From an uncultured Acidobacteriota bacterium (GTDB taxonomy: Bacteria; Acidobacteriota; Vicinamibacteria; Vicinamibacterales; 2-12-FULL-66-21): DNA of 64,000 nt. This document shows positions 14,766 to 46,585 of this stretch, in pieces. Position numbers and translations under genes: made by a program. Each line of letters starts with the position of its first letter. Position 1 is the stretch's first letter. The stretch is taken from the NCBI GenBank assembly GCA_963787175.1, contig CAWBCA010000012.1, forward strand, positions 5,033 to 69,032, written 5' to 3'. Below the pieces are notes generated by a model. It saw only the letters and a list, made by a program, of their open reading frames with translations, was not told the origin of the DNA and did not search any database.

Positions 14766-14780
14766 CAAAAGCGGGGCCAC
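14766..14780 (-). promoter_or_regulatory. candidate sigma-54 promoter (TGGCCC-N5-TTGC)
   Basis: Plus-strand gcaaaagcggggcca is the reverse complement of TGGCCCcgcttTTGC. GG and GC are at the canonical spacing, ~125 nt upstream of the ATPase start. Confidence 0.45.
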
Positions 14781-15101
14781 CGGGGTTTTCCTCTAACCAC
14801 GGACGATGATGCCGGGCCATCCGTGCTAAGCCTGCCTGCGAGATAGTTCCCCGAGATGCGGGAGCTTCGGTGGCTCTCCCACGCGGGTTTTGTCGAGCCG
14901 GAAAACGGCCTGTTCTTCGGAATACTGCCCTTGGGCGGCTGTCCACCCGCGGACTCCTGTCGGATTCAGGACCGCGTCGTCTCCCCAAGCAAGAACAGGC
15001 GGAGGCCTAGCGAAGCGGGCCAGTGCGAGAGTTTTCGCTTCGGTGGGAACTAATCCGCGCCTCTCTTGGCAGAGATTCGAACGCATCATGAAGGTCGGTG
15101 C

Positions 15102-15117
15102 TGGTTCGCTTGTTGCT
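15102..15117 (+). promoter_or_regulatory. weak candidate sigma-54 promoter (TGGTTC-N5-TTGCT)
   Basis: tggttcgcttgttgct. GG/GC spacing is correct but there are two mismatches in the -24 box. It lies ~260 nt upstream of the BON gene. Confidence 0.3.
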
Positions 15118-15377
15118 ACTTCAATTGAGACCGCCAGAGTTCTTGAGGGAGTCGGTGGCCGGAGATGCCCGGATTGACGCTGACACTGCCGTAGCGGCAC
15201 GACTCCTTAATCTGGAACACGCGCGGTGCGAGCGCGTCCTCGACACCCTCGTGGACGCCGGCGCCCTCTCGAGCGATGGGAAGACCTTTCGTCCAAGCCG
15301 GCGAGGGGCGCGCTGGATCTGAAACGCAACGGCCCGGCCTCCCTGCGCCCGGTGGACTCGACCAAGGATCTGCTGTC

Positions 15378-16037
15378 ATGACCACCACACTGAGCACTCA
15401 TGATCAATCGCTGCGAGAGAATCTTCTGAGACAGCTGGCCTGGCACCCGGAACTCGACGCCAGTATGGTCGCTGTCTCCACGCAGGAAGGAATCCTGACG
15501 CTGACTGGATACGTCGACACGTACGCGGCAAAGCTCGCGGCGGAGCGACTCGTGCGGGGCATCGACGGCGTCAGGGCGGTCGCGAACGAACTGGTTGTCA
15601 AGCTTGCGCAGGAGCGGATAGACCCGGATCTTGCCAGCGATGCGGTTCAGGCAGTGAAGAACCGTGTCAATGTGCCGAGCGGCATCCTGGTGACCGTTCG
15701 GGACGGTCACGTCTCGCTGTCGGGCACGGTCGAGTGGATGTTTCAGAAAGTCGCGGCAGAGCGGGCCGTGAAGCACCTGCGGGGAGTCCGTGACGTCGAC
15801 AACCAGATCGCTGTGAAACCGACCGAGGCACCTGCAGACGCGGAGAAGCGGATCGTGGCGGCGCTGTACGGCCACGCCAGTCTCGACGCGCGCCGGATTC
15901 AAGTGACGGCCGAGGGGTCCCGAGTGATACTCACGGGGAGCGTGCACTCCTTCATCGAGAAGAACGAGGCAGGACGCGCTGCCTGGGCCGGGCCCGGTAT
16001 CACGTTCGTCGAGAACCTTATTTCGGTCGTTCCGTAG
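15378..16037 (+). CDS. BON-domain protein (three BON repeats, OsmY-like)
   Basis: ATG at 15378. Three repeats of the pattern ..V.V..G.V.L.G.V......ERAV..(I/L)(R/D)GV..V.N.(I/L).V. Confidence 0.85.
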   Translation: MTTTLSTHDQSLRENLLRQLAWHPELDASMVAVSTQEGILTLTGYVDTYAAKLAAERLVRGIDGVRAVANELVVKLAQERIDPDLASDAVQAVKNRVNVPSGILVTVRDGHVSLSGTVEWMFQKVAAERAVKHLRGVRDVDNQIAVKPTEAPADAEKRIVAALYGHASLDARRIQVTAEGSRVILTGSVHSFIEKNEAGRAAWAGPGITFVENLISVVP

Positions 16038-16085
16038 CACTCCGTGGTTGTGCCGACGCAGGTCACCCAAGAGCGCTGACCCGGG
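15717..16085. repeat. direct repeat copy 1 (BON 3' third plus downstream ~50 nt)
   Basis: Homologous to 48965..49330. The first ~33 nt are identical (ctgtcgggcacggtcgagtggatgtttcagaaag). The rest is clearly alignable with many substitutions. Confidence 0.8.
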
Positions 16086-16294
16086 CTAGTAGGGAGACAT
16101 TCAGGTAGAGTCCCGCCAGGTGGCGACCCTGACGTTCACTGTCCGTCTTCCGATAGAGTCTGACATGGTAAGCAGGTCCACCCCACCAGTAAGCGTCGCG
16201 CGCTGGGGTCGAGATCGTAGAACAGGACCGGCAAGAGGGCGAATTCGCGGATCGACAATGCCGTGTTGGCCATCACGTCGCTGAAGGGTGCTCC

Positions 16295-16747: not shown

Positions 16748-16860
16748 CTCGACCAACAGCGATGACGCGCGCAATTCCCGGCCGCCGCTGAATTTCCGGC
16801 GCTCACGACACGGACTGGGGCCTCGCCCGGCGACAGGAAGGCTGCTAACAAAGCCGCGCG

Positions 16861-17110
16861 TTGACCCTCGGCGATGACTATGCGCCGGACTGTGAGATGC
16901 GCGGCGGCGTCTTGTGGCAGGCCCTAGCCCATGAGGCGGGGATCGTCCACCGTGATCTGAAACCGGACAACATCAAGGTGTCGGAGGACGGGCTCGCGAA
17001 AATTCTTGATTTCGGGCTTGCCAAACGGGTCCGGCCGAGCCTTGCCAATGCCCTCGCGCATACGCAGACGGCACTGGAGACCAGCCCCGGTCTGGTCGTC
17101 GGTATTTCAC
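16861..17110 (+). pseudogene. Ser/Thr protein kinase fragment (catalytic loop to DFG only)
   Basis: [30 protein letters not shown]. There is no N-lobe upstream and no APE/C-lobe downstream, and no plausible start codon. Confidence 0.6.
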
Positions 17111-17171
17111 CAGGGTGCGGGAAAATTCCCGTCCGCGGGGCAACCAGACGCACGTGGGCCCGTCAAACGGG

Positions 17172-17187
17172 AGGCGCATCGCTTGCA
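17172..17187 (+). promoter_or_regulatory. weak candidate sigma-54 promoter (AGGCGC-N5-TTGCA)
   Basis: aggcgcatcgcttgca, ~35 nt upstream of GTG 17222. GG/GC spacing is correct but the -24 box is degenerate. Confidence 0.3.
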
Positions 17188-17221
17188 GTTCCCCGCCCTG
17201 AACAGAATTCAAGGAGGCACC

Positions 17222-19308: not shown

Positions 19309-19399
19309 ACCCGTGCGTCGGCCGAACCTCGACTCGTAACGAGAGCCCTCGTCGCCCGTAGGCGCGTCCCATGGAACCCTCGACGAACGCGAGGTGAGC

Positions 19400-20213
19400 A
19401 TGACCAGACGGCAGACCCGCCTCTTCTTCATTATCGGCACCGCGGTATTCGCGCTGGTCTTCGTCGGGATGACCATCCACAGCCATACGAAGTTCGGCGA
19501 GCTGACCAATGCCGACAAGCTCACGCCGCAAGTTGTCGCCGGCAAGCACGTGTGGCACCGCAAGAACTGCATCAACTGCCACACGCTGCTCGGAGAGGGC
19601 GCGTACTTCGCACCGGACCTCACGAAGATCACGCAGCATCGCGGCGAAGCCTATCTCCGCTCCTTCATGCAGGATCCGTCCCGCTACTACTCGGAGGAGC
19701 TTCATGGCCGCCTGATGCCGAACCCGAACCTCTCGGAGCAGGAGATTACCGACGTGATTGCGTTTCTCGACTGGGTCTCGCACATCGACAATCAGGGGTG
19801 GCCGCCGCGGCCGATCATGGTCACGGCGGCCACGCCCCAGGGCATTCTCCTGGGCACGCGTCCGCCTGAGGCGGCGTCGTCGGATCCGATCGCACTCGGC
19901 CAGTCGCTCTTCAGCCGCTCGCCTCCCGCCTGTTTCAGCTGCCACTCTCTGCAAGAGGGGGTCGTGCTCGTCGGCCCGTCGATGGCCGGCCTGGCGAGGC
20001 GCGCGGGGGAATCGATCGCGAGCCCGGATTACCGGGGACAGGCCCGGACCACCGAGGAATACATCCGCGAGTCCATCGTGAGTCCGAGCGCGCATATCGT
20101 GCCCGGGCAGACGTTCTCAGCAGGGGGGCAGTCGATCATGCCCTCGGTACGAAAAAATTCTGACGGCCGAGGAGATCGGCCACCTCGTCGGTTATCTGGC
20201 GACCTTCAAATGA
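19400..20213 (+). pseudogene. norC: nitric-oxide reductase subunit C fused to an extra C-terminal mono-heme cytochrome c domain; one frameshift near the 3' end as assembled
   Basis: NorC core: GKHVWHRKNCINCHTLLGEGAYFAPDL...MPNPNLSEQEITDVIAFLDWVSHIDNQGWPP. Second heme motif: ACFSCHSL. After ...QSIMP (~20145) the product continues in another frame as YEKILTAEEIGHLVGYLATFK*, with the stop at 20211-20213. Confidence 0.85.
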
Positions 20214-20226
20214 GAGGAGCCATCGG

Positions 20227-21591
20227 ATGCGCTATCGCACGCAGGCTGTAGCCTACCCGTATTTCGTCGTCGCCATGCTGCTCTACGGGCTACAGATGGC
20301 GTTCGGCCTGCTCGCCGCCGTGAAGTACCTCGGCCCGGATCCGATCAGGGACTGGCTGCCGTTTGATGTCTCGAAAGCCATTCACACGAACCTGCTCGTG
20401 GTGTGGACGCTGACCGGCTTCATGGGCGCTGCCCACTGGCTCGTGCCTGAAGAGTCACGAACGGAGCTGCACAGCCCGAAGATGGCCTACGCGGCACTGA
20501 CGCTCTGGACCGTGATGGGCGTCGCGACGATCGTGGGATACCTCTTCGGCTTTACAGCGGGAAACAAGTTCCTGGAACAGCCGATGCTGGCGAAGCTGAC
20601 CATCGTGGTCGTTATGCTCATGTTTCTCTACAACTTGGGGATGACCATCTGGAAGGCGAGGCGCCTGACGACCACCGAAGGCGTGTTGATGGCCGGACTG
20701 GCACTGACCGCGATCCTCTATCTGCCGGCCCTGTGGGAGTTCGACAACTACACGGTGGCCATTTTCTACAGGTGGTGGACGATTCATCTGTGGGTCGAAG
20801 GCGTGTGGGAGATGGTCCAGGGGGGCCTTCTCGCGTATCTCCTCATCCGGCTGTCGGGTGTCGACCGCGAGGTCATGGAGAAGTGGCTGTATGTGATCGT
20901 GGGCCTGACGTTCATTTCGGGGCTGCTCGGCACCGCGCATCATTACTACTTTGTGGGCGTGCCGTGGTACTGGCTTCCACTCGGCGGGTTCTTCTCGGCG
21001 CTCGAGCCGCTCGTGTTCTTCGGCATGGCGATGTATGCCTACCTGGCCATCAGGCGGTCCGGCATGGCCCACCCGAATACGCTCGCGCTGCACTGGACGC
21101 TGGGCAGCGCCATCTTCTCCGCCATCGGCGCCGGCCTGCTGGGCCTGGCGCACACGTGGCCCGCCGTGAACAAGTGGACGCATGGCACGCTCATCACGCC
21201 GATGCACGGACACTCTGCGTGGTTCGGCGCCTACGTCATGATCGTCCTGGCGATGATCACCTACGCCATGCCGGGGCTCATGGGGCATTCGGAGTCCCAG
21301 CGCGAGTCCAAGGTGGGGATCTGGGCGTTCTGGCTGCAGGTCAGCGGGATGATGGGGATGACGATGGCGTTCGCGGCCGCCGGCATCGGGCAGGTGTACC
21401 TCGAGCGGGTGTTGGGCTTCGGGTATCTCGAAACACAGGCGAAGATCCAGGTCCACTTCCTCATGCTCGTCGCGACAGGTGTCCTGTTCAGCGTCGGCGT
21501 GGCTCTGTTCCTGTGGGACTTCTTTTTCCTGGCCCCGCGCGAGCGCGCCCGGATCGCCCCGGCCGTCCAGCCGGCGGCAACCGCCGTATGA
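20227..21591 (+). CDS. norB: nitric-oxide reductase large subunit (cNOR NorB, heme-copper oxidase superfamily)
   Basis: 454 aa, 12 TM-like segments. Motifs WWTIHLWVEGVWE, GTAHHYYF and HGHSAWFGAY. GAGGAG RBS upstream. Confidence 0.95.
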   Translation: MRYRTQAVAYPYFVVAMLLYGLQMAFGLLAAVKYLGPDPIRDWLPFDVSKAIHTNLLVVWTLTGFMGAAHWLVPEESRTELHSPKMAYAALTLWTVMGVATIVGYLFGFTAGNKFLEQPMLAKLTIVVVMLMFLYNLGMTIWKARRLTTTEGVLMAGLALTAILYLPALWEFDNYTVAIFYRWWTIHLWVEGVWEMVQGGLLAYLLIRLSGVDREVMEKWLYVIVGLTFISGLLGTAHHYYFVGVPWYWLPLGGFFSALEPLVFFGMAMYAYLAIRRSGMAHPNTLALHWTLGSAIFSAIGAGLLGLAHTWPAVNKWTHGTLITPMHGHSAWFGAYVMIVLAMITYAMPGLMGHSESQRESKVGIWAFWLQVSGMMGMTMAFAAAGIGQVYLERVLGFGYLETQAKIQVHFLMLVATGVLFSVGVALFLWDFFFLAPRERARIAPAVQPAATAV

Positions 21592-26119: not shown

Positions 26120-26507
26120 GGCCGGTTCCAGGGCTGAACTCCGAGACTGCGACGCGACCCTTGAAGTCACCACGCCAGAGCCGTGCCACGTCCGCGCGAG
26201 ATCTGACCGGAGTGAATGCGCCGTCTCAGTGCCAGGATGCCCTTCCAACCTAGATGCGTCGGGGTATTTCTGCGCTCCGCGGGGAATATTCCCCGCCGGC
26301 GCCAGCCTGCTGCAGACGGCGGCTTGCATCACGGCTTGATTCACGTCGGGTACTCTGCGGGTACGACTGTTGCCTTTCACGCCATCGACATCTCGAAGGA
26401 GCCCAGTCGCTCGTGCCCCGGGAACCACAGAGGTACGAAGCGACCTTCAAGGGGCGTCCGAGGGCACGCTTGGGCGGATCGCTCGTTACCAGCCTGCGAG
26501 GTCTGCG

Positions 26508-26854: not shown

Positions 26855-26993
26855 CTCGCTGCGCACACACGGTGTCGTGTATGAGCAGCTCGCGTCGGCT
26901 GCCGACGTTCAGAACGGCCGGGTGCTTCCTGTCGCGTGTGCTGACGTGACACGGGCGGGAGGGCCAATTTCAGGCTCACAAGGGAGAACCAAG

Positions 26994-27593: not shown

Positions 27594-27924
27594 CAGGCAC
27601 GTTCGACTCTCGCGGCTGCGAGAGGCCGCTCGTCGCTGGCGCGGGCGTGGTCTAAGCCATTGGACCCGGCCAGCCTGTATGCGGCAGCGCGGCCGGGGCG
27701 GGCTGTTCACGAACGAACTCCCGAACATCGCCAGCTGGACCCGCCGTCTGTCACGGCGAGCCGCTACGCCGACCACGCCGACCACGCCGGGGAATCTCCC
27801 GCAGTCCGCGTCTATTTTCCCACTCGCAAACGGAAGTTGGCGGAGGAGCGCCGTCTAGGCCGGCGAGATCGGCGTCTTCAGTCGCACGACGGCTGGTGAT
27901 TCTCTTGCACTGGGTACCTGCGTC

Positions 27925-30367: not shown

Positions 30368-30436
30368 CTTTTCCGTCGAGTTCACGATGGTCAGGCGCGC
30401 TGTACGACGCGAGCTTGTCATGCGATAAACGAGGCT

Positions 30437-30451
30437 GCAATTCGTAAGCCT
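30437..30451 (-). promoter_or_regulatory. candidate sigma-54 promoter (AGGCTT-N5-TTGCA)
   Basis: Plus-strand gcaattcgtaagcct, ~75 nt upstream of usp GTG 30367. GG/GC spacing is correct, the -24 box is weak, and the -12 box is perfect. Confidence 0.4.
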
Positions 30452-30602
30452 CACTGGTCGTCCCGCTGCCAGAGCGATCGCGTGCCGGCGCGGCAGAATC
30501 ACGAGAATTTTTCCTCACGGGGGGCGAAATTCTACCCAAGGCTGCTGTCGCTCGGCTGCCCGGAAGGCACGCGTTCTCGTGCACGAGGGCAGACTTCGGG
30601 TA

Positions 30603-30618
30603 TGGCAATGACGTTGCT
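30603..30618 (+). promoter_or_regulatory. candidate sigma-54 promoter (TGGCAA-N5-TTGCT)
   Basis: tggcaatgacgttgct has one mismatch to TGGCAC-N5-TTGCW. It lies ~75 nt upstream of ppsA ATG 30693. Confidence 0.65.
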
Positions 30619-33390: not shown

Positions 33391-34749
33391 ATGGCCAAAG
33401 CCACAATCCTCGTCGTTGATGATGAAGCGCTGATTCGGTGGTCTCTTGCGGAGCGCCTGAAGGCGGAAGGCTATGACGTGCTGGAGGCGGACACCGGGCG
33501 GGGCGCTCTGGAACGGCTTCCGGAGGGCGTCGACCTGGTCCTGCTCGACTATCGGCTCCCCGACACCGACGGCGTCACCATCCTGCGCAAGATGAAGGAG
33601 TTCGACCAGGACATCCTGGTCATTCTCCTGACCGCGTATGCCAGCGTGGAAACCGCCGTCGAGGCGATGAAGCTGGGCGCCTATCATTTCGCCAACAAGC
33701 CGTTCAACCTCGACGAGGTCGCGGCGACCGTCGAGCGGGCGCTGGAGACGACCCGGCTGCGCCGCGAGGTACGGCAACTCCGTACGAGTGCGGCGCGTCC
33801 CTACAGCCTCGACCGCATCGTCGGCGCGTCTCCGGCCATGACCACGCTGCGGCAACTCGTCGCCCGTGTCGCCAGCAGCCCGGCGTCGACAGTGCTGTTG
33901 ACTGGTGAGAGCGGAACCGGCAAGGACCTGGTCGCGAAGGTGATCCATTACGGCAGCGACCGGGCCGCCAGGGCGTTCATGAACATCACGTGCTCCGCGC
34001 TCCCCGAGCAGCTCCTGGAGAGCGAGCTGTTCGGGCACGAGCGTGGCGCCTTCACCGATGCACGGCTGCAGAAGAAGGGCCTGCTCGAAACGGCCAGCGG
34101 TGGCACCGTCTTCCTCGACGAGATCGGCGAAATGACCCCGGCCCTCCAGGCGAAGCTGCTGCGGTTTCTCGAGGAGAAAAGCTTCAAGCGGGTGGGCGGC
34201 GCCAGCGACATCCGCGTGGACGTGCGGGTGATCGCCGCGACCAATCGCGACCTTCAGGAAGCCGTCGCCAAGCACCAGTTCCGGGCCGATCTGTTCTACC
34301 GGCTCAACGTGCTCCCCCTGCCCCTGCCGCCCCTCCGTCAGCATCCAGAAGACATCCCCGCGCTGGTCGAGTTCTTCATCGATGGTTTCAATACGGAGTT
34401 CAGGAAGCGGGTGCTGGGCGCGACGCCGGCGGCCCACGCCGTGCTCCAGCGCTACGGATGGCCAGGTAACGTACGCGAGCTCCGCAACCTCGTCGAACGT
34501 GCCATGCTCCTATCTGATGCCGACCGGCTCGATGCGCGAGACTTCGCGTCGCTCAACACCACTACCGCCGCGGGCGACGGGTTCGAGCTACCCTCCACCG
34601 GCGTCGATCTCGAGAAGCTGGAGCGAAGTCTGGTCATTCAGGCGCTGCAACGCAGCGGGGGGAACCAGACTCGCGCTGGAGCGCTGCTCGGTCTGAACAG
34701 GGACCAGATTCGCTACCGGATAGAGAAGTTCTCCCTCAACACCGCCTGA
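33391..34749 (+). CDS. sigma-54-dependent response regulator (NtrC family: REC + AAA+ + Fis-type HTH)
   Basis: REC: [11 protein letters not shown]...[13 protein letters not shown]. Walker [15 protein letters not shown] loop (variant of GAFTGA). [18 protein letters not shown] tail [23 protein letters not shown]. Confidence 0.95.
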
Positions 34750-35405: not shown

Positions 35406-35475
35406 GACGTCGCCTCCTCTTGCCGGGCTGCTGCCTCAAGGATGTGGAGGCTGGCCGCCCGGTGCCTCAGCGATC

Positions 35476-35490
35476 GCAACGGCTGTACCA
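35476..35490 (-). promoter_or_regulatory. candidate sigma-54 promoter (TGGTAC-N5-TTGC)
   Basis: Plus-strand gcaacggctgtacca, ~70 nt upstream of usp ATG 35405. One mismatch in the -24 box. Confidence 0.45.
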
Positions 35491-35638
35491 GCGGAAACGG
35501 CCGGTCATTCAAGACAGGCGTAGCCGCCGTACCGAGAGTGCCCTCGAGCACCGCGAACTATTCCGCAGCACGCCGGAAGAATCACCTTCGGCAAGTTCCC
35601 TCACGAGCCTGATTTCCCAGCGTACGCGGTAGCGCGGA

Positions 35639-35654
35639 GGGCACGACTGTTGCC
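35639..35654 (+). promoter_or_regulatory. candidate sigma-54 promoter (GGGCAC-N5-TTGCC)
   Basis: gggcacgactgttgcc, ~150 nt upstream of the kinase ORF start 35806. Divergent from the 35476 motif. Confidence 0.5.
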
Positions 35655-35805: not shown

Positions 35806-37137
35806 ATGGAGCTCCTGCAACGACTTGGCGCGGCGCAGACTGCCGCGAAGCGATCCGCGGTCGGATTGACACCGCCACTGACGTCCACCTTCTGCCACAG
35901 CCGCGGACGTGATCTTCTCCTCGTCGCGGCGGTGCTGACGCTGCTGCTCTGGCTCGGCACGCCCCTGAGGACGCCCGGCTCGCACGTGGCGCCGTTCGCC
36001 GGTTTGTGGGCGGCCTCCGGGCTGCTTGGTGTCTGGAGCTGGAGGTACACGCGGCGCGCCCTCGAGCCGCCGCACGCAGCCAGAGGGGTGGCGGACTCGC
36101 TGGAAACGCTTCAGGAGGTCCGGTCCGCGCTGGATCAGGCCGCCATCGTCGCCACCACAGATCACCGCGGAACCATCATGTCGGTCAACGATCGGTTCTG
36201 CGCGATATCCGGTTACTCGCGCGAGGAGCTGGTCGGGCAAAACCACCGCATCATCAACTCCGGCTATCACCCATCGACGTTCTTTGCCGACCTATGGAGG
36301 ACGATTGGGCGTGGAAGCGTCTGGCGCGGGGAGGTGCGCAACCGCGCGAAGGACGGGTCTCTCTACTGGGTGGACACGACGATCGTGCCGTTCTTGGATC
36401 AGGGCGGGAAACCGCGCCAGTATCTCGCCATTCACAGCGACATTACCGTCCGCAAGGATGCTGAGGCGCAGCTTCGCAGCCAGGCGGCCCTTGCGCACCT
36501 TGGCCAACTCGCCGCCGTGGTCGCACACGAAGTGCGCAACCCCTTGGCAGGCCTCCGCGCGTCTCTGCAGGTGCTGGATGGCCGGTGCTCCAACGAGCTT
36601 TCAGCGCGACAGGTCATCGGGGCCATGATCCAGCGCATTGATGAACTGAACGAGAAACTCGGCGATCTGTTGCTCTATGCGCAGCCGAGGCCCGCGCGAT
36701 TGCAGGCTGTGGATGTGCGATCGATCGCGCTGGACGCGGCCGCCGCCGCTCGCGCAGCCATGGGTGAGGCTCACCCGCCCGTCCCCGTGCTCGGCCAACG
36801 GACCGTCGCTCGTGCCGATCCCGACATGCTCCGCGCGGCCGTGCTGAACTTGACGCTGAATGCATGTCAGGCCGCCGCACGCGCCGGGGTCGAGCTCCAG
36901 GTCGAGGGAGACGAGCGTGTCTGCCGCATCTCCGTGCGTGACCGCGGGCCTGGCATCCCGGCCGACCTGCGGGATCGGTTGTTCGAGCCGTTCTTCACCA
37001 CTCGCCCGGGCGGCACGGGTTTAGGACTTGTTGTCGCCAGGCGTCTGCTCGACCTCCAGGGAGGCGCGGTGGCATTGAAAGACCATCCGGAGGGGGGCAC
37101 GGTGGCCGCGGTCACCCTGCCGGCAGCACCAGAATAG
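35806..37137 (+). CDS. membrane-anchored PAS-domain sensor histidine kinase
   Basis: Two N-terminal hydrophobic segments. PAS (TDHRGTIMSVNDRFCAISGYSREELVGQNH...). H-box VAHEVRNPLAGL. N/G boxes (RDRGPGIP, GGTGLGL). Confidence 0.85.
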   Translation: MELLQRLGAAQTAAKRSAVGLTPPLTSTFCHSRGRDLLLVAAVLTLLLWLGTPLRTPGSHVAPFAGLWAASGLLGVWSWRYTRRALEPPHAARGVADSLETLQEVRSALDQAAIVATTDHRGTIMSVNDRFCAISGYSREELVGQNHRIINSGYHPSTFFADLWRTIGRGSVWRGEVRNRAKDGSLYWVDTTIVPFLDQGGKPRQYLAIHSDITVRKDAEAQLRSQAALAHLGQLAAVVAHEVRNPLAGLRASLQVLDGRCSNELSARQVIGAMIQRIDELNEKLGDLLLYAQPRPARLQAVDVRSIALDAAAAARAAMGEAHPPVPVLGQRTVARADPDMLRAAVLNLTLNACQAAARAGVELQVEGDERVCRISVRDRGPGIPADLRDRLFEPFFTTRPGGTGLGLVVARRLLDLQGGAVALKDHPEGGTVAAVTLPAAPE

Positions 37138-37213: not shown

Positions 37214-38653
37214 TCAGGCTGGCAGCTGCACGGTCACCGTCGTGCCGCCACCCGGCGGGCACGACACGCTGATCGTGCCGCGATGCGCCTCGACGAGGCG
37301 CTTGGCGGTCGGAAGCCCCAGGCCGGAGCCGCGAGACTTGGTGGTGAAGAAGGGCAGAAAGATTTTGTCACGCATCTCGGCGGGTATGCCTGGGCCGCGA
37401 TCGATGACGGCGATCTGGCACGTGCCGTCCACCGCCCCGACTTCTACCTGCAGCGTGCCGGCGTCGTTCATGGCATGCGCGCCATTCACGATGAGGTTCT
37501 CGAACACGATGCGGAGCAGGTCAGCGTCGGCCAGGATCGGCGGGTGCGAGCCACGGACCTCCACATGCAAGCCTGCGAGGGCGGGATTCCGGCTGAGCAG
37601 GTCGGCCGTGAGCCTGACGAGTGTCTCAATCTCCACAGGAGCCGACTTCGGCCGGGGCGGACGGGCAAAGAGCAGCAGGTCCTGCATCAATCCGTTCAGC
37701 CCGTCTATGCGCGCCACAATCTCCTGAACGATGGCGGTGTCACTGCTCTCCTTGGGCAGCCGGGCACCAACGACCTGGACCGCACCCCGCACGCCTGCGA
37801 GAGGATTCCTTACCTCGTGAGCGATGACGGCGGCCATCTCGCCCAGCCTGGCCAGGGCCGCCTGCTCCCGGAGCTGCGCCTCGAGGCGCACGCGCGTCGT
37901 CAGGTCGTGGAGAATCCCCGAAAACCGACGTTCCTGCCCGATCTTCATTTCCCCAACGGCGAGGTGGGCGGGAAACGTCGTCCCGTCCTTTCGTAAGCCG
38001 GTGACCTCGCGGCCGATCCCGATGATCCGTGGGACGTCCGTAGACAGATAGCGGGCGATGTAGCTGTCGTGCTCCTCGCGGTGTGGGGAGGGCATCAGGA
38101 GGCTCACGTTACGGCCGATTACCTCCGACGCCTCATATCCGAACATCCGCCCCGCACTCGGGTTGAACTCTTCGATCCGACCCTGCGCATCGATGACGAT
38201 GATGCCGTCGACCGCCGAGTCGAATACGGCGTGCCAGCGCGCCTCGCTGACCCGGCGCGCAGCCTCCGCCTGTTTCTGTTGCGTGATGTCATGCGCAGTC
38301 GCCGAGGCGCCAATCACACGCCCGCTCGCGTCACATACGGGCGCAACCGTCAGCGACATCTCGATCAGTTCGCCGTCCTTCCTGCGGCGCAGCGTGTCGT
38401 AGGGACCGACGCGCTCTCCCGCCGCAACGCGCCGGATCACGCCCGGAAGCTCGTCGGCGCGATCAGCGGGAATGAGGATTGAGACTGATCGTCCGGTGAT
38501 GTCAGGCCCGGAATAGCCGTAAAGGCGTTCGGCACTCCTGTTCCAGGTCAGAACGACACCGTCCAGATCCGTGCCGATGACGGCGTCGGCGGACGAATCG
38601 AACAAGGCCCCGAGAAAGGCCGCCGCGTCGTCGTTGGGCGTAAAGGCGGACAT
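37214..38653 (-). CDS. soluble double-PAS sensor histidine kinase; second PAS is FixL-like (heme-PAS)
   Basis: PAS1: AVIGTDLDGVVLTWNRSAERLYGY. PAS2: IIVIDAQGRIEEFNPSAGRMFGYEASEVIGRNVSLLMPSPHREEHDSYIARYLSTDVPRIIGIGREVTGLRKDGTTFPAHLAVGEM. H-box IAHEVRNPLAGV. ATP-lid IDRGPGIP..GSGLGL. Confidence 0.9.
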   Translation of the reverse strand: MSAFTPNDDAAAFLGALFDSSADAVIGTDLDGVVLTWNRSAERLYGYSGPDITGRSVSILIPADRADELPGVIRRVAAGERVGPYDTLRRRKDGELIEMSLTVAPVCDASGRVIGASATAHDITQQKQAEAARRVSEARWHAVFDSAVDGIIVIDAQGRIEEFNPSAGRMFGYEASEVIGRNVSLLMPSPHREEHDSYIARYLSTDVPRIIGIGREVTGLRKDGTTFPAHLAVGEMKIGQERRFSGILHDLTTRVRLEAQLREQAALARLGEMAAVIAHEVRNPLAGVRGAVQVVGARLPKESSDTAIVQEIVARIDGLNGLMQDLLLFARPPRPKSAPVEIETLVRLTADLLSRNPALAGLHVEVRGSHPPILADADLLRIVFENLIVNGAHAMNDAGTLQVEVGAVDGTCQIAVIDRGPGIPAEMRDKIFLPFFTTKSRGSGLGLPTAKRLVEAHRGTISVSCPPGGGTTVTVQLPA

Positions 38654-40573: not shown

Positions 40574-41521
40574 TCACCCTGCATGACTGATCACTTGTTC
40601 ACGCCTCGCCGGCTGTGGGCGCACCACATGGCCGGGGGGGAGTGCCAGCACCAGATTCCTGGAGAGACACAGGAAACGATAGGTGACGGAGCCCATTCGC
40701 GGACCGATGAGAGGTGATCCATGAAGACCGACCAACGTCAGTCCCGCCTGGCGGTCGTGGGCAATCTTGGCGAGCTCCTCCGCGGGATCGCCATACGCCA
40801 CAAGCGCTTCGGAGTGGAGGCGCGGTGGAATCGTTGCCACCAACTCACTCAGCCGGTCTTCTGCGATGGCACGCTGGTCGGCCTCGAGCGTGATGACGTG
40901 CCGCCGCCCGGCCATGGGCGTCTTGATCGGTTCGATCACGTATGCCAGAAGCATCGGCACGTTCAGGGCCTCGGCGACCGCACGCGCGACCTGTGTCTGA
41001 TGCAGCGAGTCGGCCGACAGATCAACGGGCACCAACACCCGGCGTACCAGATGCTGTGCCTGCTCGACGGACAGCGGCCGCGGCACCACTGGCGGGGTGA
41101 TGAGCACCGGCTGCGATGTCTCGCGAAGGACGCGCTCCGTCGTGGAGCCAAAGAACAGCTTCCGCATCCCTGTGAGCCCCTGTGTGCTGATCACAATGAG
41201 GCTACATGAGCGCTCCTCGCAGACGCGCAGGATCTCGACTGCGGGCTTCCCAACTGCCACCTCGTATTCGAACGCGGCCGGGGGGCTCGAGTCATGAGCA
41301 CCGGCCCTGCGGGCAAAGTCCGCCAGTTCCTGGGTGCAGGCGCCCGGATCCCAGACGATGCCGGTGCCGAGGTCGACCGCATTTGCCAGGAGCGGGTGTG
41401 CGACCGTCAGCACCAGCACACGCGCGCCGAACCGGGTACCGATGGCGGCCGCATAGCGGAGGGCGCCAGCGGACGCTTCCGAGAAGTCCACCGGGCACAG
41501 GATCAAAGGACTGTCGTTCAT
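40574..41521 (-). CDS. tandem (double-domain) universal stress protein
   Basis: MNDSPLILCPVDFSEAS...SLIVISTQGLTGMRKLFFGSTTERVLRETSQPVLI, then a second domain RVLVPVDLSADS...LTLVGLHGSPLIGPRMGSVTYRFLCLSRNLVLAL. Start is M at 41521 or 41533. Confidence 0.85.
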   Translation of the reverse strand: MNDSPLILCPVDFSEASAGALRYAAAIGTRFGARVLVLTVAHPLLANAVDLGTGIVWDPGACTQELADFARRAGAHDSSPPAAFEYEVAVGKPAVEILRVCEERSCSLIVISTQGLTGMRKLFFGSTTERVLRETSQPVLITPPVVPRPLSVEQAQHLVRRVLVPVDLSADSLHQTQVARAVAEALNVPMLLAYVIEPIKTPMAGRRHVITLEADQRAIAEDRLSELVATIPPRLHSEALVAYGDPAEELAKIAHDRQAGLTLVGLHGSPLIGPRMGSVTYRFLCLSRNLVLALPPGHVVRPQPARREQVISHAG

Positions 41522-41605
41522 GATGGCCTCCATCTCAGACACGTTGGCGCACGCTGCTCCCGCAACCCCGCCGGAGTCACGCCGGTTCGGGGGCACCAGA
41601 GTCGG

Positions 41606-42085
41606 TCAGGCGGCACGGTGAGTCTGTGGGGTCGATGCCTCGTCGGGGCGGATCGTCAGCACGGGACACGGTGCAGCGCGGACAACGCGCTCGGCTACAC
41701 TCCCCATCAACAGCCGTGCGATGGCCCGGCGACCGTGCGTGCCCATGACCACCAGATCGATGTTCTTCTGCTCCGCCAGATAGTCCAGGATCTCCTCGGC
41801 CGGCGCGCCTGTGCGGCACACGAGCACGACGTTGTACCGTTCCCGCTCCTCGTCCGTTAACGACGTCTCGAGCAGCTTCAGGGCATCGCGCTCCAGTTGG
41901 GCAAACAGGTCCGGCGGAGGCGCATAGAACTCCATGTACCCGCCGCGCACGAAGGGATTCTCGGTGGCGTGCAGGAGGTGGAGCGAGGCGCCGAACGCGT
42001 CCGCCAGGCCGCAGGCGTAGCGGAGCGCCTGCTTCGATGCCGCACTGAAATCGGTGGGGACGAGGATGTTCTTGATGCGAGTCAT
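41606..42085 (-). CDS. universal stress protein
   Basis: MTRIKNILVPTDFSAASKQALRYA...LHLLHATE...DLVVMGTHGRRAIARLLMGSVAERVVRAAPCPVLTI. Close paralogue of 44887..45366. Confidence 0.9.
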   Translation of the reverse strand: MTRIKNILVPTDFSAASKQALRYACGLADAFGASLHLLHATENPFVRGGYMEFYAPPPDLFAQLERDALKLLETSLTDEERERYNVVLVCRTGAPAEEILDYLAEQKNIDLVVMGTHGRRAIARLLMGSVAERVVRAAPCPVLTIRPDEASTPQTHRAA

Positions 42086-42210: not shown

Positions 42211-42226
42211 CGCAACCTTAGTGCCA
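42211..42226 (-). promoter_or_regulatory. candidate sigma-54 promoter (TGGCAC-N5-TTGCG, perfect core)
   Basis: Plus-strand cgcaaccttagtgcca is the reverse complement of TGGCACtaaggTTGCG. It lies ~130 nt upstream of usp ATG 42085, in the right orientation for the usp / tandem-usp / APH-P-loop gene string. Confidence 0.7.
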
Positions 42227-42428
42227 TTGCGAAACGAGTGCGCTGCTGGGGATCCGCGCGCTCGGCGTCCGGAGAACCCGGGAAGAAATTCGCATGCGCG
42301 AGGAAATTGTCGCGCTTGCTCCAGCGCAGCACGTCGGGCTTACCAGCGACGCCACCCTCAGTGACGCGCTATAGGAGTCCAAGCGCCTGCGGCATCAGGG
42401 TTGCTCGATAGCGTGTCGGAGCACGATC

Positions 42429-42650
42429 ATGACGATTCACGATCCGCATCTCGGCGATGCGAACGGGCCGCTCGAACAGAGACTGATCGAGGAATATCTC
42501 GCGGCGCGCGGCCACACGCGACATTCCCTTGTCACGCTGGCGGGTTCGCAGGCGGGATCGCTGCTCAGAGCAGCCTCTGAGTACGCAAGCCTGAGACTGG
42601 CTGAGATGGAGGCAAAAGCCCACTACGTCCACGAGATAGGTGGACGATAG
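42429..42650 (+). CDS. small hypothetical protein (73 aa)
   Basis: The ORF has balanced composition (MTIHDPHLGDANGPLEQRLIEEYLAARGH...) but no recognisable family or clear RBS. Confidence 0.3.
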   Translation: MTIHDPHLGDANGPLEQRLIEEYLAARGHTRHSLVTLAGSQAGSLLRAASEYASLRLAEMEAKAHYVHEIGGR

Positions 42651-43968: not shown

Positions 43969-44580
43969 CTACCGGCCTCGTACTGGCGTGACGGGATGAT
44001 TCTCGAAGTGATACACCGCGTGGACCGCAACGCTCGTCATCACGAGGCGCCGACGGTCTCGGAACGCCACCATCGCCTGCACCACAGGACGAATCGCCAG
44101 ATGTGGGTTGATGAAGACGCTCAGCCCTCCGCCAGCGAGCACCGTGGGATCGTTGAAGGTCATGCCCACCTGCGATATCCGCTGCGTCACTCGTTGCCTG
44201 TAGAAATCCGGCATGACGCCGTCGTCCGGCCCGAACGACGCACGATAGACACCGACGCCAGCTTGCACGAATGGATCGATGTTGCGTCGCCCGAATAAGC
44301 GCCTCCGGACCTGGAGTGCCCCACTGAACCCGGACGCGCCATGATCAAACGATGCCCACGCGCCGCTCCCCTCGATGGCAAGCGCCGGGGTGATTTCCCA
44401 GCCGGCGGTTCCGCCGAGCATCGAGCCTGTGGACGAGGCGGTGACTGCCGTGCCGGCAAATCCGCTCAACGTCGTTGCGTGGTGCCAGTCGTCCACGCGC
44501 GGGGCGACCTGGGCCGAGGCTGATGCGGCGACGGTGAGGGATGCGACGCTGACGAGTAGAACACGATGAATTGTACGCAT
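43969..44580 (-). CDS. outer-membrane beta-barrel protein (OmpW/porin-family-like)
   Basis: Signal peptide MRTIHRVLLVSVASLTVAASASAQ. Alternating hydrophobic pattern. Aromatic-rich C-terminal strands (VAVHAVYHF). Confidence 0.7.
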   Translation of the reverse strand: MRTIHRVLLVSVASLTVAASASAQVAPRVDDWHHATTLSGFAGTAVTASSTGSMLGGTAGWEITPALAIEGSGAWASFDHGASGFSGALQVRRRLFGRRNIDPFVQAGVGVYRASFGPDDGVMPDFYRQRVTQRISQVGMTFNDPTVLAGGGLSVFINPHLAIRPVVQAMVAFRDRRRLVMTSVAVHAVYHFENHPVTPVRGR

Positions 44581-44886
44581 TGATCACGCTCCTGCGATCG
44601 ACTACGCAACCCACATACCTTCGGAGAACCAGCGCTCGTGCGGGTCTGGTGGGAGATCCACGGGCGGGCTTGGGGATTCCTCCGCACACCCACGAAGTAT
44701 TCCGTGTTTGCCAACGCTCCAGGAGTGGACGGATCGAACTCCGGCCGAGCGCGAAATCCCCCGAGCCGCTGATCTTCTCGAGACCGCGTGAGGGAGCGTG
44801 CCGCGCGATCGGGGATGGTGAGGGCGCGGCAAAAGCGTGGGCGGGACGGCCCAGTACAGAGCCGTCCCGATACCCGCCAATCGAGG

Positions 44887-45366
44887 TCAGGCGGCGCGAG
44901 TGACGTCGTCGGACGCCAGCGTTGACGGCCGGAGGTCAGCACGGGGCACGGCGCGGCCCGTATGACCTTGTCTGCCACGCTGCCAAGCATCAGGCGTGCG
45001 ACCCCCCCGCGACCGTGTGTCGCCATCACGACCAGGCTCGATCTCCGGGTGCTCGTGAAGATAACGCAGGATCTCCTGGGCAGGGACGCCGGCCGCGCGC
45101 ACGAGCACCGCGTGGTACCGCACCTTTTCCGCCTCTGTCAGTGACTCGTCCAGATTTCTCTGGACGTCCTGGTCGATCTGATCGAAGAACTGCTGTGGAG
45201 GGACGTAGAACTCAAGGTAACCGCCCGGCATATTGGGATTCTCAGCGGCATGCAGCACGTGCAGCGAGGCGTCGAATCGGTCCGCCAGCCTGCAGGCGTA
45301 TCGCAGCGCCTCTTTGGAGGCATCACTGAAATCGATGGGCACCAGAATAGTGGTGATCGGAGTCAT
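44887..45366 (-). pseudogene. universal stress protein, two compensating frame breaks as assembled
   Basis: MTPITTILVPIDFSDASKEALRYA..LHVLHAAE... After ..YLHEHPEI (~45036) the conserved text LVVMATHGRGGVARLMLGSVADKVIRAAPCPVLT is in another frame. The frame returns at ~44932 (RPSTLASDDVTRAA*). Confidence 0.8.
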
Positions 45367-45399
45367 GACGACGTTCCGTTCCTGGATGTTGTCCCTTGC

Positions 45400-46510
45400 C
45401 TACGACACCTGCGTGGCGGCCGTGGCATCGACGCCGCCGACCAGAGGGAGCCCTGCGGGATAGATCGCGACCTTCAGCACGCCGGCATCCTGCCGGCTGA
45501 AGAGATCGAAGGCGATCGGCAGTTGTTCCAGGGTGAAGTCGTGTGTCACGAGAGACGTGAGGTCCAGGCGATCGTGGATCACCATCGCCATCAACCGCCG
45601 CATCCGTTCCTTGCCGCCGGGGCAGAGCGTGGTAACGATCCGTTGGTCGCCAAGGCCGGCGTGCAGCGCCTCATACGGCGCGGTCAGCTTGCCCGAGTAG
45701 ACACCGAGGCTCGACAGCGTGCCGCCCGCGCGCGTGGAGCGGAGCGCGGCTTCGAAGGTCTCCTGCCGGCCGAGCGCCTCAATCGCGACGTCCACACCGC
45801 GGCCCTCGGTGAGCCGCTTGATCTCCGCGACCACGTCCTGGGCGGCGGGATCCAGCGTGACCGTCGCCCCAAACCGGCGCGACATGGCCCGGCGGTCGGG
45901 GAGCATGTCCACGCCAATGATCAGACCTGCGCCGCGCAGGCGCGCGCCCACGGTCGCGCACAGCCCGATCGGGCCCTGTGCGAACACCGCCACGCTGTCT
46001 CCGACCTTGACCTGACCGCTCTCGGCGCCCGAGATGCCCGTGGAGGCAATATCGGGCAGCATGAGTACCTGCTGGTCCGTCAGGCCGTCGGGCACGAGGG
46101 CGAGGTTGGCCCTCGCGTCCGGAATCAGCAGGTACTCTGCCCAGGCACCGTCGATGGTGTTGCCGAACCGCCAGCCGCCCATCGGACCACGACACTGCGA
46201 ATGCACGCCGTTCAGGCAATAGAAGCACTGACCACAGGGCGTAATGGCACCGACAATCACCCGCTGCCCGACGGCGTACTCGTCGTCGAGACCCTCGCCG
46301 AGCTCCGCGATGATGCCGACCGGCTCGTGCCCGAGTATCAGGCCCGGTCGGACCGGGATACTCCCCTTTGACGATATGCACGTCGGTTCCGCAGATGGTC
46401 GTGGCCGTCACGCGAATGACCGCCTGGCCAGCGCGCGGGTGTGGGCGCGGGACCTCCTCGACGCGTATATCGTTGACACCGTGGAACACGACCGCCTGCA
46501 TGGTTTCCAT
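45400..46510 (-). pseudogene. zinc-dependent alcohol dehydrogenase (MDR family), one frameshift as assembled
   Basis: METMQAVVFHGVNDIRVEEVPRPHP..ICGTDVHIVKGEYP | (extra base ~46356) VRPGLILGHEPVGIIAELG...CGQCFYCLNG..VFAQGPIGL... The usp at 45366 follows 33 nt downstream. Confidence 0.85.
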
Positions 46511-46570
46511 GTGATCCTCACTTCCTGTTCGGCGCGGCACGGCAGCCGCGAGCAGCCGGTTACAGCAACG

Positions 46571-46585
46571 GCAACGCCGATGCCA
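46571..46585 (-). promoter_or_regulatory. candidate sigma-54 promoter (TGGCAT-N5-TTGCC)
   Basis: Plus-strand gcaacgccgatgcca, ~60 nt upstream of adh ATG 46510. One mismatch to the consensus. Confidence 0.6.

Follow-up and report, generated by a model that had tools for sequence, protein, structure and literature searches.

Paired palindromic boxes and candidate sigma-54 promoters in a stress-gene cluster of Vicinamibacterales (Acidobacteriota)

The NmpRSTU system of Myxococcus xanthus (McAllister et al. 2025, PMC11841059) has an NtrC-like regulator, sigma-54 promoters and two tandem palindromic upstream sites. It is autoregulated, receives input from a haem-based oxygen-sensing kinase, includes a USP in its regulon and belongs to a soil organism. 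Regulation of the NtrB-NtrC/glnAp2 type involves a REC-AAA+-HTH_8 activator and tandem dyad sites on one helix face, followed some 80-140 bp downstream by a GG-N10-GC promoter. The kinase of rhizobial FixL-FixJ has a tandem-PAS architecture with a haem-PAS sequence. The DosRST regulon of Mycobacterium tuberculosis and the lxa locus of Burkholderia cenocepacia (PMC3721108) contain many USPs, alpha-crystallin/Hsp20, Zn-ADH and a cation P-type ATPase; the genes are clustered and co-regulated via a repeated upstream motif, the regulators being the NarL-type DosR and an Anr/FNR-like factor (TGA-N6-TCA) at sigma-70 promoters.

A cluster at about 14.7-49.3 kb of the 64-kb stretch of DNA from a soil acidobacterium analysed here (the window) shares these features in part. 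By analogy, its proposed mechanism is like that of NmpRSTU, and its genes recall those of the DosR and lxa regulons. However, the NmpR site is GCGCA-N5-TGCGC with a 14-15-bp gap, whereas the boxes here follow GCGGAAWWTTCCGC at 20-21 bp, and the NmpRSTU sensor is a globin-coupled kinase in a multi-step phosphorelay, whereas the candidate sensors here are FixL-type haem-PAS and FAD-PAS kinases. Moreover, the phylum is different, the activator shares only about 50% identity with its best Myxococcota homologue, and the putative regulon is far richer in USPs and adds PpsA, ADH, BON and Hsp20. Compared with the NtrB-NtrC/glnAp2 type, the box sequence, the likely signal and the targets differ, the activator has GAFTDA instead of GAFTGA, and the enhancers are frequently bidirectional. 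The kinase at 37214-38653 is of the FixL kind, but it seems to be paired with an NtrC-type sigma-54 activator rather than a LuxR-type FixJ, and the predicted output is stress genes rather than the fixK/nif cascade.

An earlier sequence-only reading of this DNA had placed an NtrC-type activator in the cluster, and its sigma-54 interaction domain is indeed found by Pfam. The GAFTDA variant occurs in 24 of 84 homologues. The second PAS domain of the FixL-like kinase is a haem-PAS; its alignment with FixL spans the haem pocket, and the proximal-His motif is conserved. Among the window ORFs scanned, a subset of the total, the only other regulator was a Trans_reg_C protein at 59-61 kb, far outside the cluster, and no FixJ-like gene was found. 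No rpoN gene lies in the 64-kb window.

All seven -24/-12-like motifs of the same reading are present, with coordinates right to within 1 nt, and the observation is confirmed. The positions of 42211-42226(-), 30603-30618(+) and 35639-35654(+) were exact, three minus-strand spans fell short of the full 16-mers (46570-46585, 35475-35490 and 30436-30451), and the ATPase motif lies at 14764-14779, 1 nt from its reported place. The distances to start codons also hold (75 nt for ppsA, 60 nt for adh, 126-141 nt for usp). Background comparison, proposed there as a check, gave no excess of the bare motif: with TGGCACN5TTGCW and up to 2 mismatches, the window has 34 matches against 25.5±4.9 in dinucleotide shuffles, and 34 was reached in 6 of 100 shuffles. 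Thus the motifs as bare consensus matches are not above chance, whereas their association with tandem palindromic boxes is. Alignment of 35 promoters yields the canonical sigma-54 consensus with G at position 7 in 19 of them, a preference not imposed beforehand. At operon starts the form is YGGCAY-N5-TTGCY; several promoters depart from it at conserved positions (e.g. AGGCTT, GGGCAC, TGGTAC, and TGGCG at -12).

The shared upstream element consists of two palindromic 14-bp boxes with the above consensus. The sequence-only reading had recognised no common activator motif, and the local palindromes it noted at 30483-30495 and 30576-30587 are not common to other sites. Upstream of sigma-54-like matches, six-mers such as AATTTC and GGAAAT are over-represented (13 of 64 against 1.3 expected, p = 6e-10), and EM run without a seed or a palindrome constraint arrives at GGAAATTTCCCGC and CGCGGAAATTCC. 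The window and seven orthologous Vicinamibacterales loci (199 kb) contain 25 box pairs. The centre-to-centre spacing of boxes peaks sharply, with 7 pairs at 20 bp and 9 at 21 bp; Markov controls give at most 0.1 at these distances. This spacing corresponds to two helical turns. A GG-N10-GC element lies 70-125 nt outward of 18 of the 25 pairs (random placement: 0.46 anywhere, 1.85 intergenic), the observed distances being 76-119 nt. Conversely, 23 of 66 motif matches lie 70-125 nt outward of the pairs, against 0.49 for random placement anywhere and 2.1 for intergenic-only placement, none of 2000 trials exceeding 9. The offsets from box to promoter cluster at 77, 87, 97-100, 107 and 118 nt with a period of 10.4-10.5 bp (R = 0.77, Rayleigh p about 1e-6); only integral-turn spacings occur. 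The centre of the proximal box falls some 76-117 bp before the predicted start. Initial training of the box matrix used DNA upstream of sigma-54-like matches, which makes the approach partly circular; this is eased by the spacing peak, by the unseeded EM and by a hold-out test with a matrix trained on other loci only, where 4 of 5 window pairs carry a match (P = 5e-5). Gene calls are our own and GC3-based, and because of indel errors and frameshifts in the window the offsets could be off by 1 nt.

Table. Regulators, box pairs and candidate promoters in the window (offsets are box-to-promoter distances in nt; scores are box matrix scores)
Feature	Position	Strand	Sequence	Remarks
NtrC-type response regulator / enhancer-binding protein	33391..34749	+		Pfam: REC, AAA+ sigma-54 interaction domain, HTH_8
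FixL-like PAS-PAS histidine kinase	37214..38653	-		E 1e-35 to 4e-42 vs FixL structures
FAD-type PAS histidine kinase (MmoS, Aer, NifL type)	35806..37137	+		3ewk E 1e-52; Aer, NifL PAS also match
Weak candidate, P-type ATPase	14764..14779	-	TGGCCCcgcttTTGCG	sub-threshold pair 14838/14858 (scores 12.0, 4.8); offset 92, out of phase
Enhancer between P-type ATPase and BON gene	15025..15058	.	GCGAGAGTTTTCGC + GGGAACTAATCCGC	20 bp apart; scores 14.7, 10.1; in hold-out scan
New promoter, triple-BON protein 15276-16037 (Pfam BON)	15102..15117	+	TGGTTCgcttgTTGCT	2 mismatches; offset 77
Single strong box + candidate (17172), secreted protein	17117..17187	+	GCGGGAAAATTCCC + AGGCGCatcgcTTGCA	50 nt before GTG 17222
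New candidate, ORF 25550-26119	26173..26188	-	TGGCACggctcTGGCG	2 mismatches; offset 106
Enhancer	26259..26294	.	TCGGGGTATTTCTG + GGGGAATATTCCCC	22 bp apart; scores 7.6, 15.3; in hold-out scan
New candidate, small cupredoxin-like gene (about 26509-26856, frameshifted)	26359..26374	+	GGGTACgactgTTGCC	offset 100
Box pair 27789-27821 + candidate (27894), flavodoxin-like gene ending at 28731 (Pfam Flavodoxin_5)	27789..27909	+	TGGTGAttctcTTGCA	pair score 18.5; offset 105; 3 mismatches
Promoter candidate, usp 29861-30367	30436..30451	-	AGGCTTacgaaTTGCA	3 mismatches; offset 86, in phase
Enhancer (UAS) common to divergent usp, ppsA promoters	30503..30537	.	GAGAATTTTTCCTC + GCGAAATTCTACCC	21 bp apart; scores 14.6, 11.0; recovered by matrix trained on other loci only
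Promoter, ppsA (30693-33117, frameshifted)	30603..30618	+	TGGCAAtgacgTTGCT	1 mismatch; offset 100 from distal box; predicted start about 30629
Promoter, usp 34938-35405	35475..35490	-	TGGTACagccgTTGCG	2 mismatches; offset 76
Enhancer	35532..35566	.	GCGAACTATTCCGC	strong box at 35553, weak partner 35532; more weak boxes 35574, 35589, 35607
Promoter, FAD-PAS histidine kinase 35806-37137	35639..35654	+	GGGCACgactgTTGCC	2 mismatches; offset 107
Promoter, usp 41606-42085, tandem usp 40574-41596, APH-like kinase 38821-40332	42211..42226	-	TGGCACtaaggTTGCG	1 mismatch; offset 87; predicted start about 42200
Enhancer	42280..42313	.	GGGAAGAAATTCGC + GAGGAAATTGTCGC	20 bp apart; scores 10.8, 13.8; in hold-out scan
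New candidate, 73-aa ORF 42429-42650	42390..42405	+	CGGCATcagggTTGCT	2 mismatches; offset 110
Box pair 44672-44705 + weak candidate (44620), outer-membrane beta-barrel 43969-44580	44605..44705	-	AGGTATgtgggTTGCG	offset 85; 4 mismatches
Promoter, Zn-ADH (45400-46510, frameshifted in window) + usp 44887-45366	46570..46585	-	TGGCATcggcgTTGCC	2 mismatches; offset 87
Enhancer	46639..46672	.	GCGGAAGAATCCCC + GCGGAAGAACACGC	20 bp apart; scores 10.7, 7.5
Tentative: box pair 48403-48436 + candidate (48522), DUF6064 48570-48887, BON 48986-49285 (Pfam)	48403..48537	+	TGGCATctagcCTGCT	offset 119; second box weak, 4.3

With these corrections, the sigma-54 interpretation of the motifs is supported. Six of the seven sites (42226-, 30603+, 46585-, 35639+, 35490-, 30451-) lie in phase with a tandem-box enhancer, whereas the P-type ATPase site is weak, with a sub-threshold box pair and an out-of-phase offset. 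The strong enhancer nearby faces away from it, toward the BON gene via 15102+. Both proposed divergent promoter pairs are real in the sense that a single central enhancer serves two directions, and the same arrangement exists in loci L004 and L005. One small soil RNA contig extends to about 42175 and no farther, which is weak evidence for the promoter at 42211. Several further promoters had been overlooked, the best additions being 15102, 26359, 26188 and 42390. The 26359 promoter is nearly identical in sequence to that at 35639.

Motif discovery across orthologous loci, suggested in the sequence-only reading, recovered box pairs in seven Vicinamibacterales loci. Their targets are USP (5), PpsA, ADH, P-type ATPase, Hsp20 (2), BON and OsmC genes, which typically start 38-70 nt downstream and in most cases have a Shine-Dalgarno sequence. 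Elsewhere in the Vicinamibacterales the architecture is kept upstream of orthologues of usp, ppsA and adh. For ppsA it is found in all three Vicinamibacterales genes examined, including the orthologues in L005 and L098, and is missing at all eight next-closest ppsA loci checked (seven acidobacterial). In L005 the usp/ppsA divergent pair is mirrored, and CGGCACgctccTTGCC lies 38 nt upstream of the adh start. The BON/ATPase divergent layout around a box pair recurs in L003, as does the AGGTAT...TTGC form of the 44620 candidate (at 15157). The secreted-protein homologue of L004 (3565-4164) has a box pair and a sigma-54-like element upstream. The activator gene always adjoins a FixL-type or FAD-PAS kinase gene plus USP genes, and around distant activator homologues box pairs are about 7-fold sparser than around orthologues.

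Overall, the cluster is probably best explained as a sigma-54 regulon with paired-box enhancers, an adjacent NtrC-type activator and a low-oxygen or redox input. Each operon start has a -24/-12 promoter served by a two-box enhancer; as the boxes are palindromic, a single enhancer often serves two divergent promoters. Adjacency and homology suggest that dimers of the regulator 33391-34749 bind both boxes. After phosphorylation by one or both of the neighbouring kinases (FixL-like haem-PAS, FAD-PAS), the regulator would form an AAA+ ring and remodel the sigma-54 holoenzyme. The enhancers would then probably be activated by the adjacent oxygen/redox-sensing two-component system. Given the sensor types and the gene content (USPs, PpsA, Zn-ADH, BON, P-type ATPase and flavodoxin-like proteins, with Hsp20 and OsmC in orthologues), low oxygen or a reduced redox state is the most likely signal, and the output may be a survival programme for dormancy or hypoxia. 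The regulators are likely to be under positive feedback, as regulated operons include the kinase genes and probably that of the activator. The 30603 promoter possibly drives the activator gene at 33391 too, and the 42211 promoter the FixL-like kinase gene 37214-38653.

A real regulon of this architecture with some input other than oxygen or redox, or with boxes bound by another activator, is conceivable but rather unlikely. General energy, nutrient or desiccation signals, or a paralogous activator elsewhere in the genome, could be considered. PAS domains are versatile, and USP, Hsp20, BON and OsmC genes answer many stresses; furthermore, L002, L004 and L006 each have two paralogous activators, and the window retains a deleted remnant of a second one. 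However, the haem-PAS domain matches FixL over the haem pocket including the proximal His, in L003 the FixL-type kinase gene directly precedes that of the activator in the same orientation, and the gene content overlaps known hypoxia regulons (PMC3721108, PMC11841059).

We consider it improbable that the -24/-12-like strings are chance occurrences in GC-rich DNA, with sigma-70-type or ECF promoters in their place and the boxes bound by a repressor or by a CRP/FNR-, Rex- or DosR-like factor. The unenriched global count and the 2-4 mismatches of several sites speak for such an explanation. The boxes also loosely resemble other dyads of the GGAA/TTCC or GGGAC type. Nevertheless, the GG-N10-GC elements keep fixed, helically phased positions with respect to the boxes, facing outward on both sides, and their alignment recovers the canonical consensus, including the position not imposed. 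The boxes lie 150-250 nt from the start codons, a distance too great for classical class I/II activation or repression, and the scanned ORFs, a subset of those in the window, offer only the NtrC-type activator and the distant Trans_reg_C protein. Least likely of all is that the cluster is decaying and its promoters are functionless relics: ppsA, adh, the ATPase gene, one usp, the cupredoxin-like gene and the acetyl-CoA synthetase gene are frameshifted and a deleted activator remnant is present, but the regulator genes are intact, as are most usp genes, the motifs are well preserved, and an Illumina contig from a related population, lacking the extra base at 46358 and so restoring the adh frame, and another contig differing by 1 nt within a usp gene point to assembly indels or strain variants.

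The palindromic box pair appears to be a previously unrecognised enhancer element. In our reading, it would define a lineage-specific sigma-54 regulon responsive to low oxygen or redox state, in which a gene set akin to those of DosRST and lxa appears to have been wired to sigma-54 in these Acidobacteriota.

The seven candidate sigma-54 promoters that the sequence-only reading placed upstream of the operons of a stress cluster are all present in the window, with coordinates exact or shifted by 1 nt. In promoters of this class, the GG and GC doublets are separated by exactly 10 nt in a YTGGCACG-N4-TTGCW-like context, activator sites lie approximately 80-150 bp upstream of the start, and transcription begins ~12 nt past the GC and requires rpoN. 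The GG-N10-GC spacing is retained at all candidate sites listed below, with 1-4 mismatches per site. Enrichment over a shuffled background is not significant for the bare motif: the window contains 34 TGGCACN5TTGCW matches with at most two mismatches, while dinucleotide shuffles contain 25.5±4.9, with 34 or more in 6 of 100. This count is unremarkable, and thus the case must rest on the context of the sites.

The best promoters are preceded by a recurring bipartite element, although no shared upstream motif had been recognized in the sequence-only reading. The element is supported by three independent checks. Hexamers such as AATTTC, GGAAAT and GGAATT are strongly enriched within 125 nt upstream of sigma-54-like matches (13/64 against 1.3 expected, p = 6e-10). 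Motif discovery upstream of the candidates across orthologous loci, proposed earlier as a check, recovers the same signal: seeded palindromic EM yields GCG(G/A)AAWWTT(C/T)CGC, and non-palindromic EM without a seed, begun from 500 random starts, arrives at this motif as well. The resulting box, a 14-bp palindrome with the consensus GCGGAAWWTTCCGC, is new. EM matrices were used in place of hand-made patterns, of which TTCCTCRCG-N-GAWTTC had no matches and TYCCKCRCG occurred at the chance level; plain GGAA-Nx-TTCC regular expressions were too strict to be useful. The local palindromes at 30483-30495 and 30576-30587, pointed out previously, do not recur at other promoters.

The boxes were scanned for in 199 kb, comprising the window and seven orthologous Vicinamibacterales loci (L001-L007). 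The box-to-box distance, a property unknown to the matrix, peaks sharply at 20 bp (7 pairs) and 21 bp (9 pairs), whereas Markov-1 controls give at most 0.1 pairs at these distances and do not exceed about 0.5 whatever the spacing. The boxes are therefore arranged in tandem, in pairs separated by two turns of the helix.

The box pairs are linked to the promoter-like elements. At 18 of the 25 pairs in the 199 kb, at least one GG-N10-GC element with at most two mismatches lies 70-125 nt outward, and these box-linked elements make up 23 of the 66 elements of this kind present in the same DNA. Pairs placed at random have 0.49 matches if placed anywhere and 2.1 if restricted to intergenic DNA, and none of 2000 trials exceeds 9. 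As the first matrix was trained on DNA upstream of sigma-54-like matches, the test was repeated with a matrix derived from L001-L007 only. With this matrix the window contains five pairs, each spaced at 20-22 bp, and four of them have a promoter-like element (P = 5e-5, random intergenic placement). The offsets from the distal box to the T of TGGCAC form classes of 76-77, 85-87, 97-100, 105-110 and 118-119 nt with a period of 10.4-10.5 bp (Rayleigh statistic 0.77, p ~1e-6), where indels or frameshifts in the window may move some offsets by a base. This phasing is the face-of-the-helix dependence expected of an enhancer close to its promoter.

Candidate sigma-54-like promoters in the window, with offsets from the distal box
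Site	Strand	Offset (nt)	Downstream gene	Assessment
42226	-	87		supported
46585	-	87		supported
30603	+	100		supported
30451	-	86		supported
35639	+	107		supported
35490	-	76		supported
14779	-	92, out of phase	P-type ATPase	weak; sub-threshold pair (scores 12.0, 4.8)
26359	+		small cupredoxin-like gene	further candidate
26188	-		ORF 25550-26119	further candidate
27894	+		flavodoxin-like gene	further candidate
42390	+		73-aa ORF	further candidate
44620	-		outer-membrane protein gene	further candidate
17172	+		secreted protein; L004 homologue behind box pair and sigma-54-like element	further candidate
48522	+		DUF6064 and BON genes	further candidate

Six of the seven proposed promoters have in-phase box-pair offsets, while the ATPase site is weak and out of phase at 92 nt. 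A strong enhancer near the latter, at 15025-15058, is directed to the BON gene through the candidate 15102(+) at offset 77, and the same divergent BON/ATPase arrangement around a box pair is found in L003. The two divergent regions hold up, each having one central enhancer common to both promoters. Such divergence is also seen in L004 (3349-/3521+) and L005 (3464-/3612+, the mirrored ppsA and usp). The promoters at 26359-26374 and 35639-35654 are almost identical, GGGTACGACTGTTGCC and GGGCACGACTGTTGCC, and their downstream genes are unrelated. The targets of weak AGGTAT-type promoters, the outer-membrane protein gene of the window and L003 15198, are not homologous. The intergenic region 16900-17060, flanked by a weak box pair (16770-16802) and by the box at 17117, contains a fragment of a Ser/Thr protein kinase catalytic loop (...DFGLAK...) without a complete ORF.

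Alignment of 35 box-associated promoters yields the consensus YGGCAY(G)-N4-TTGCY, with C4 in 27, A5 in 29, C or T at position 6 in 28, T12 in 30, and T13 in 33 of the 35. G at position 7, which was neither imposed nor selected for, occurs in 19/35. The upstream activator sites of sigma-54 promoters correspond here to tandem boxes at helically phased offsets. A search for transcripts of the window produced one 216-nt soil metatranscriptome contig over the usp 5' region, too little to map starts, and no other RNA match. The rpoN gene is absent from the 64-kb window.

The window has G+C content of about 66%; gene calls are home-made, and domains in the cluster were assigned by Pfam scans of the window ORFs. 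The cluster encodes four single-domain universal stress proteins (USPs) and one tandem USP, PEP synthase, Zn alcohol dehydrogenase, an APH/AAA-type kinase, a P-type (type II) cation ATPase, two BON proteins, a flavodoxin-like protein, an outer-membrane beta-barrel protein, one NtrC-type activator and two PAS histidine kinases. Several genes are split by frameshifts: Zn-ADH (46358), a usp (44934), ppsA (32470-32720), the P-type ATPase (13306-13618), the cupredoxin-like gene (26509-26856) and the GNAT/ADP-forming acetyl-CoA synthetase gene (50230-52907). A rhizosphere-metagenome Illumina contig has one base fewer at 46358, which restores the 369-aa ADH, and another contig has an additional C after 44934. 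The splits look more like assembly indel errors or strain variants than true pseudogenes. Within the cluster, the region 19394-21591 contains genes for cytochrome c and haem-copper oxidase subunit I (COX1, with a weak NorB-like cytochrome c match), accompanied by VIT1, a PNPOx-like flavoprotein and a Tll0287-like protein; no box pair was found for the genes of this region. An ISL3-family transposase gene (57325-58782) lies downstream of the cluster.

The NtrC-type activator noted in the sequence-only reading (33391-34749) is confirmed by Pfam matches to Sigma54_activat (3e-67), Response_reg (6e-26) and HTH_8 (1e-11), that is, the REC, AAA+ sigma-54 interaction and HTH_8 domains of the NtrC subfamily. 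The GAFTGA loop, by which NtrC-type activators contact sigma-54, reads GAFTDA in this protein. The same sequence is present in 24/84 homologues from many phyla and in most orthologues, and is treated here as a natural variant. A 40-codon ORF at 50099-50221, with a box pair upstream (49960-49993), consists of the first 13 residues of a receiver domain fused in frame to the last 27 of an HTH_8 tail. It is the remnant of a second, internally deleted activator paralogue; two intact copies are retained in L002, L004 and L006.

FixL-type sensors have a haem-PAS domain that contains a proximal His and distal Arg residues and precedes HisKA and HATPase_c. The kinase 37214-38653 is a FixL homologue, whose second PAS domain aligns with the haem-PAS domain of B. 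japonicum FixL (E ~1e-35; HREEHDSYIARY...IIGIGREVTGLRKDGTTFPAHL against DRSRHDSYISRY...IIGIGRIVTGKRRDGTTFPMHL). The alignment covers the proximal-histidine segment ...H-DSYI-RY... and the stretch IIGIGR-VTG-R-DGTTFP-HL, with the residues known in FixL as His200, Arg206 and Arg220. By sequence this kinase has the features of a FixL-type haem-PAS sensor, and haem binding is predicted. The kinase 35806-37137 contains a FAD-type PAS domain similar to MmoS (3ewk, E 1e-52), and the PAS domains of Aer and NifL also match.

Orthologues of the activator with 64-76% identity were found in the seven Acidobacteriota/Vicinamibacterales MAGs that carry L001-L007, and the next best matches, from other phyla, have at most 50% identity. 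USP genes adjoin the activator in all seven loci, and a FixL-type or FAD-PAS kinase also adjoins it in L002-L007; in addition, L005 contains ppsA and adh, and L003 the BON/ATPase pair. The promoters themselves are conserved in these loci. Box pairs with sigma-54-like promoters precede USPs (5), full-length PpsA, Zn-ADH, P-type ATPase, Hsp20 (2), BON, OsmC, DUF4136, a TonB_C protein, a TPR protein and a paralogous activator. The promoters typically lie 38-70 nt before the start codon, with a Shine-Dalgarno sequence in most cases. In L001 such a promoter with an upstream box pair immediately precedes the activator gene, and in L002 the promoter is likewise present with weak upstream boxes; in the window, no sigma-54 promoter was found directly upstream of this gene (33118-33390).

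A ppsA gene on a 4.35-Mb Vicinamibacterales contig (L098, 73% identity) is preceded by TGGCACcggacGCGCA at in-phase offsets 76, 96 and 116, with three boxes at exact 20-bp steps (1312, 1332 and 1352, within 1312-1443). Hence box arrays larger than two do occur. The architecture is absent at the eight other closest ppsA loci examined, among them those of Bryobacteraceae, Acidobacteriaceae, Pyrinomonadaceae and Chloracidobacterium. Therefore the wiring of ppsA is lineage-specific rather than ancient.

The density of box pairs is about sevenfold higher around the activator orthologues than around 73 more distant activator loci. In two Thermoanaerobaculia loci (L036 and L078) with homologues 46-48% identical, the same pair occurs with a promoter at offset exactly 100. 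Related pairs next to activators of about 46-48% identity in Thermoanaerobaculia, an Anaerolineales MAG and an unclassified MAG are a hint that the module extends beyond a single order. In an Anaerolineales MAG (L009, ~1-2711), the only locus where an RpoN box (ARRTVAKYR) was seen, rpoN lies directly upstream of a 48%-identical activator homologue, and a box pair GTGCAAATTTCCCC-N6-GGGAAATTCCCC just after it. This may be a compact module of sigma-54, activator and enhancer in another phylum.

The original observation is thus real, and better supported than could be known from the first reading: what it describes is a sigma-54 regulon that depends on enhancers and is mechanistically of a standard type. 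The two boxes would be bound by dimers of the NtrC-type regulator, which is the likely binder because it has the only sigma-54-activator domain in a motif scan of the window, an HTH_8 domain and a conserved adjacency to the boxes. It would be phosphorylated by the FixL-like kinase, the FAD-PAS kinase, or both, and such wiring is plausible. The most likely trigger would be low oxygen or a reduced state. Targets would include the kinase operons themselves, and probably ppsA with the activator, which would create positive feedback.

The closest characterized analogue is the Myxococcus NmpRSTU system, in which an NtrC-like regulator acts on sigma-54 promoters through two tandem palindromic sites; the system is autoregulated, uses a haem-based oxygen sensor and has a USP among its targets (PMC11841059). 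However, the NmpR site of M. xanthus, GCGCA-N5-TGCGC, differs from GCGGAAWWTTCCGC, and the NmpRSTU sensor is a globin-coupled kinase (NmpU) within a phosphorelay, whereas the window kinases are PAS-type. Thus the window system is an analogue rather than a member of the NmpR regulon. In gene content, though only in that, the cluster is also similar to the DosR regulon and to the lxa locus of Burkholderia, which contain USPs, alpha-crystallin, Zn-ADH and a cation ATPase (PMC3721108). The regulators there are NarL-type or Anr-type (Anr/FNR) with a box of their own, different from that of the window, and as the ORFs scanned in the window include neither a NarL-type DosR nor an Anr/FNR regulator, membership in a DosR/lxa-type hypoxia regulon is rejected. 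Rex, DosR and FNR are rejected as box binders, since their boxes differ from GCGGAAWWTTCCGC and such regulators were not found among the ORFs scanned.

The main text of a 2025 survey of sigma-54 regulons makes no mention of Acidobacteria (PMC12316311), and our literature searches found no published account of the system reported here. Our tentative interpretation, which has a real chance of being correct although we stop short of favouring it outright, is a Vicinamibacterales dormancy/hypoxia regulon with DosR-like content, in which FixL-type haem and FAD-PAS kinases feed an NtrC-type activator acting through undescribed bidirectional GCGGAAWWTTCCGC pairs strictly phased to sigma-54 promoters.

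Vicinamibacterales are abundant, among the commonest soil bacteria, and rarely cultured. To our knowledge, almost nothing is known about gene regulation in this poorly studied lineage. The result is a concrete regulatory code of box consensus, spacing, phasing and promoter set, usable at once for regulon prediction in hundreds of MAGs, together with a candidate sensor-regulator pair for riding out oxygen or redox fluctuations in soil. The phased, bidirectional enhancers form a clean natural data set on the geometry of activator-promoter contacts. The system would exemplify a USP/Hsp20 persistence gene set under sigma-54 control and, if the interpretation is true, a dormancy/hypoxia regulon converging on the content of mycobacterial DosR with entirely different wiring.
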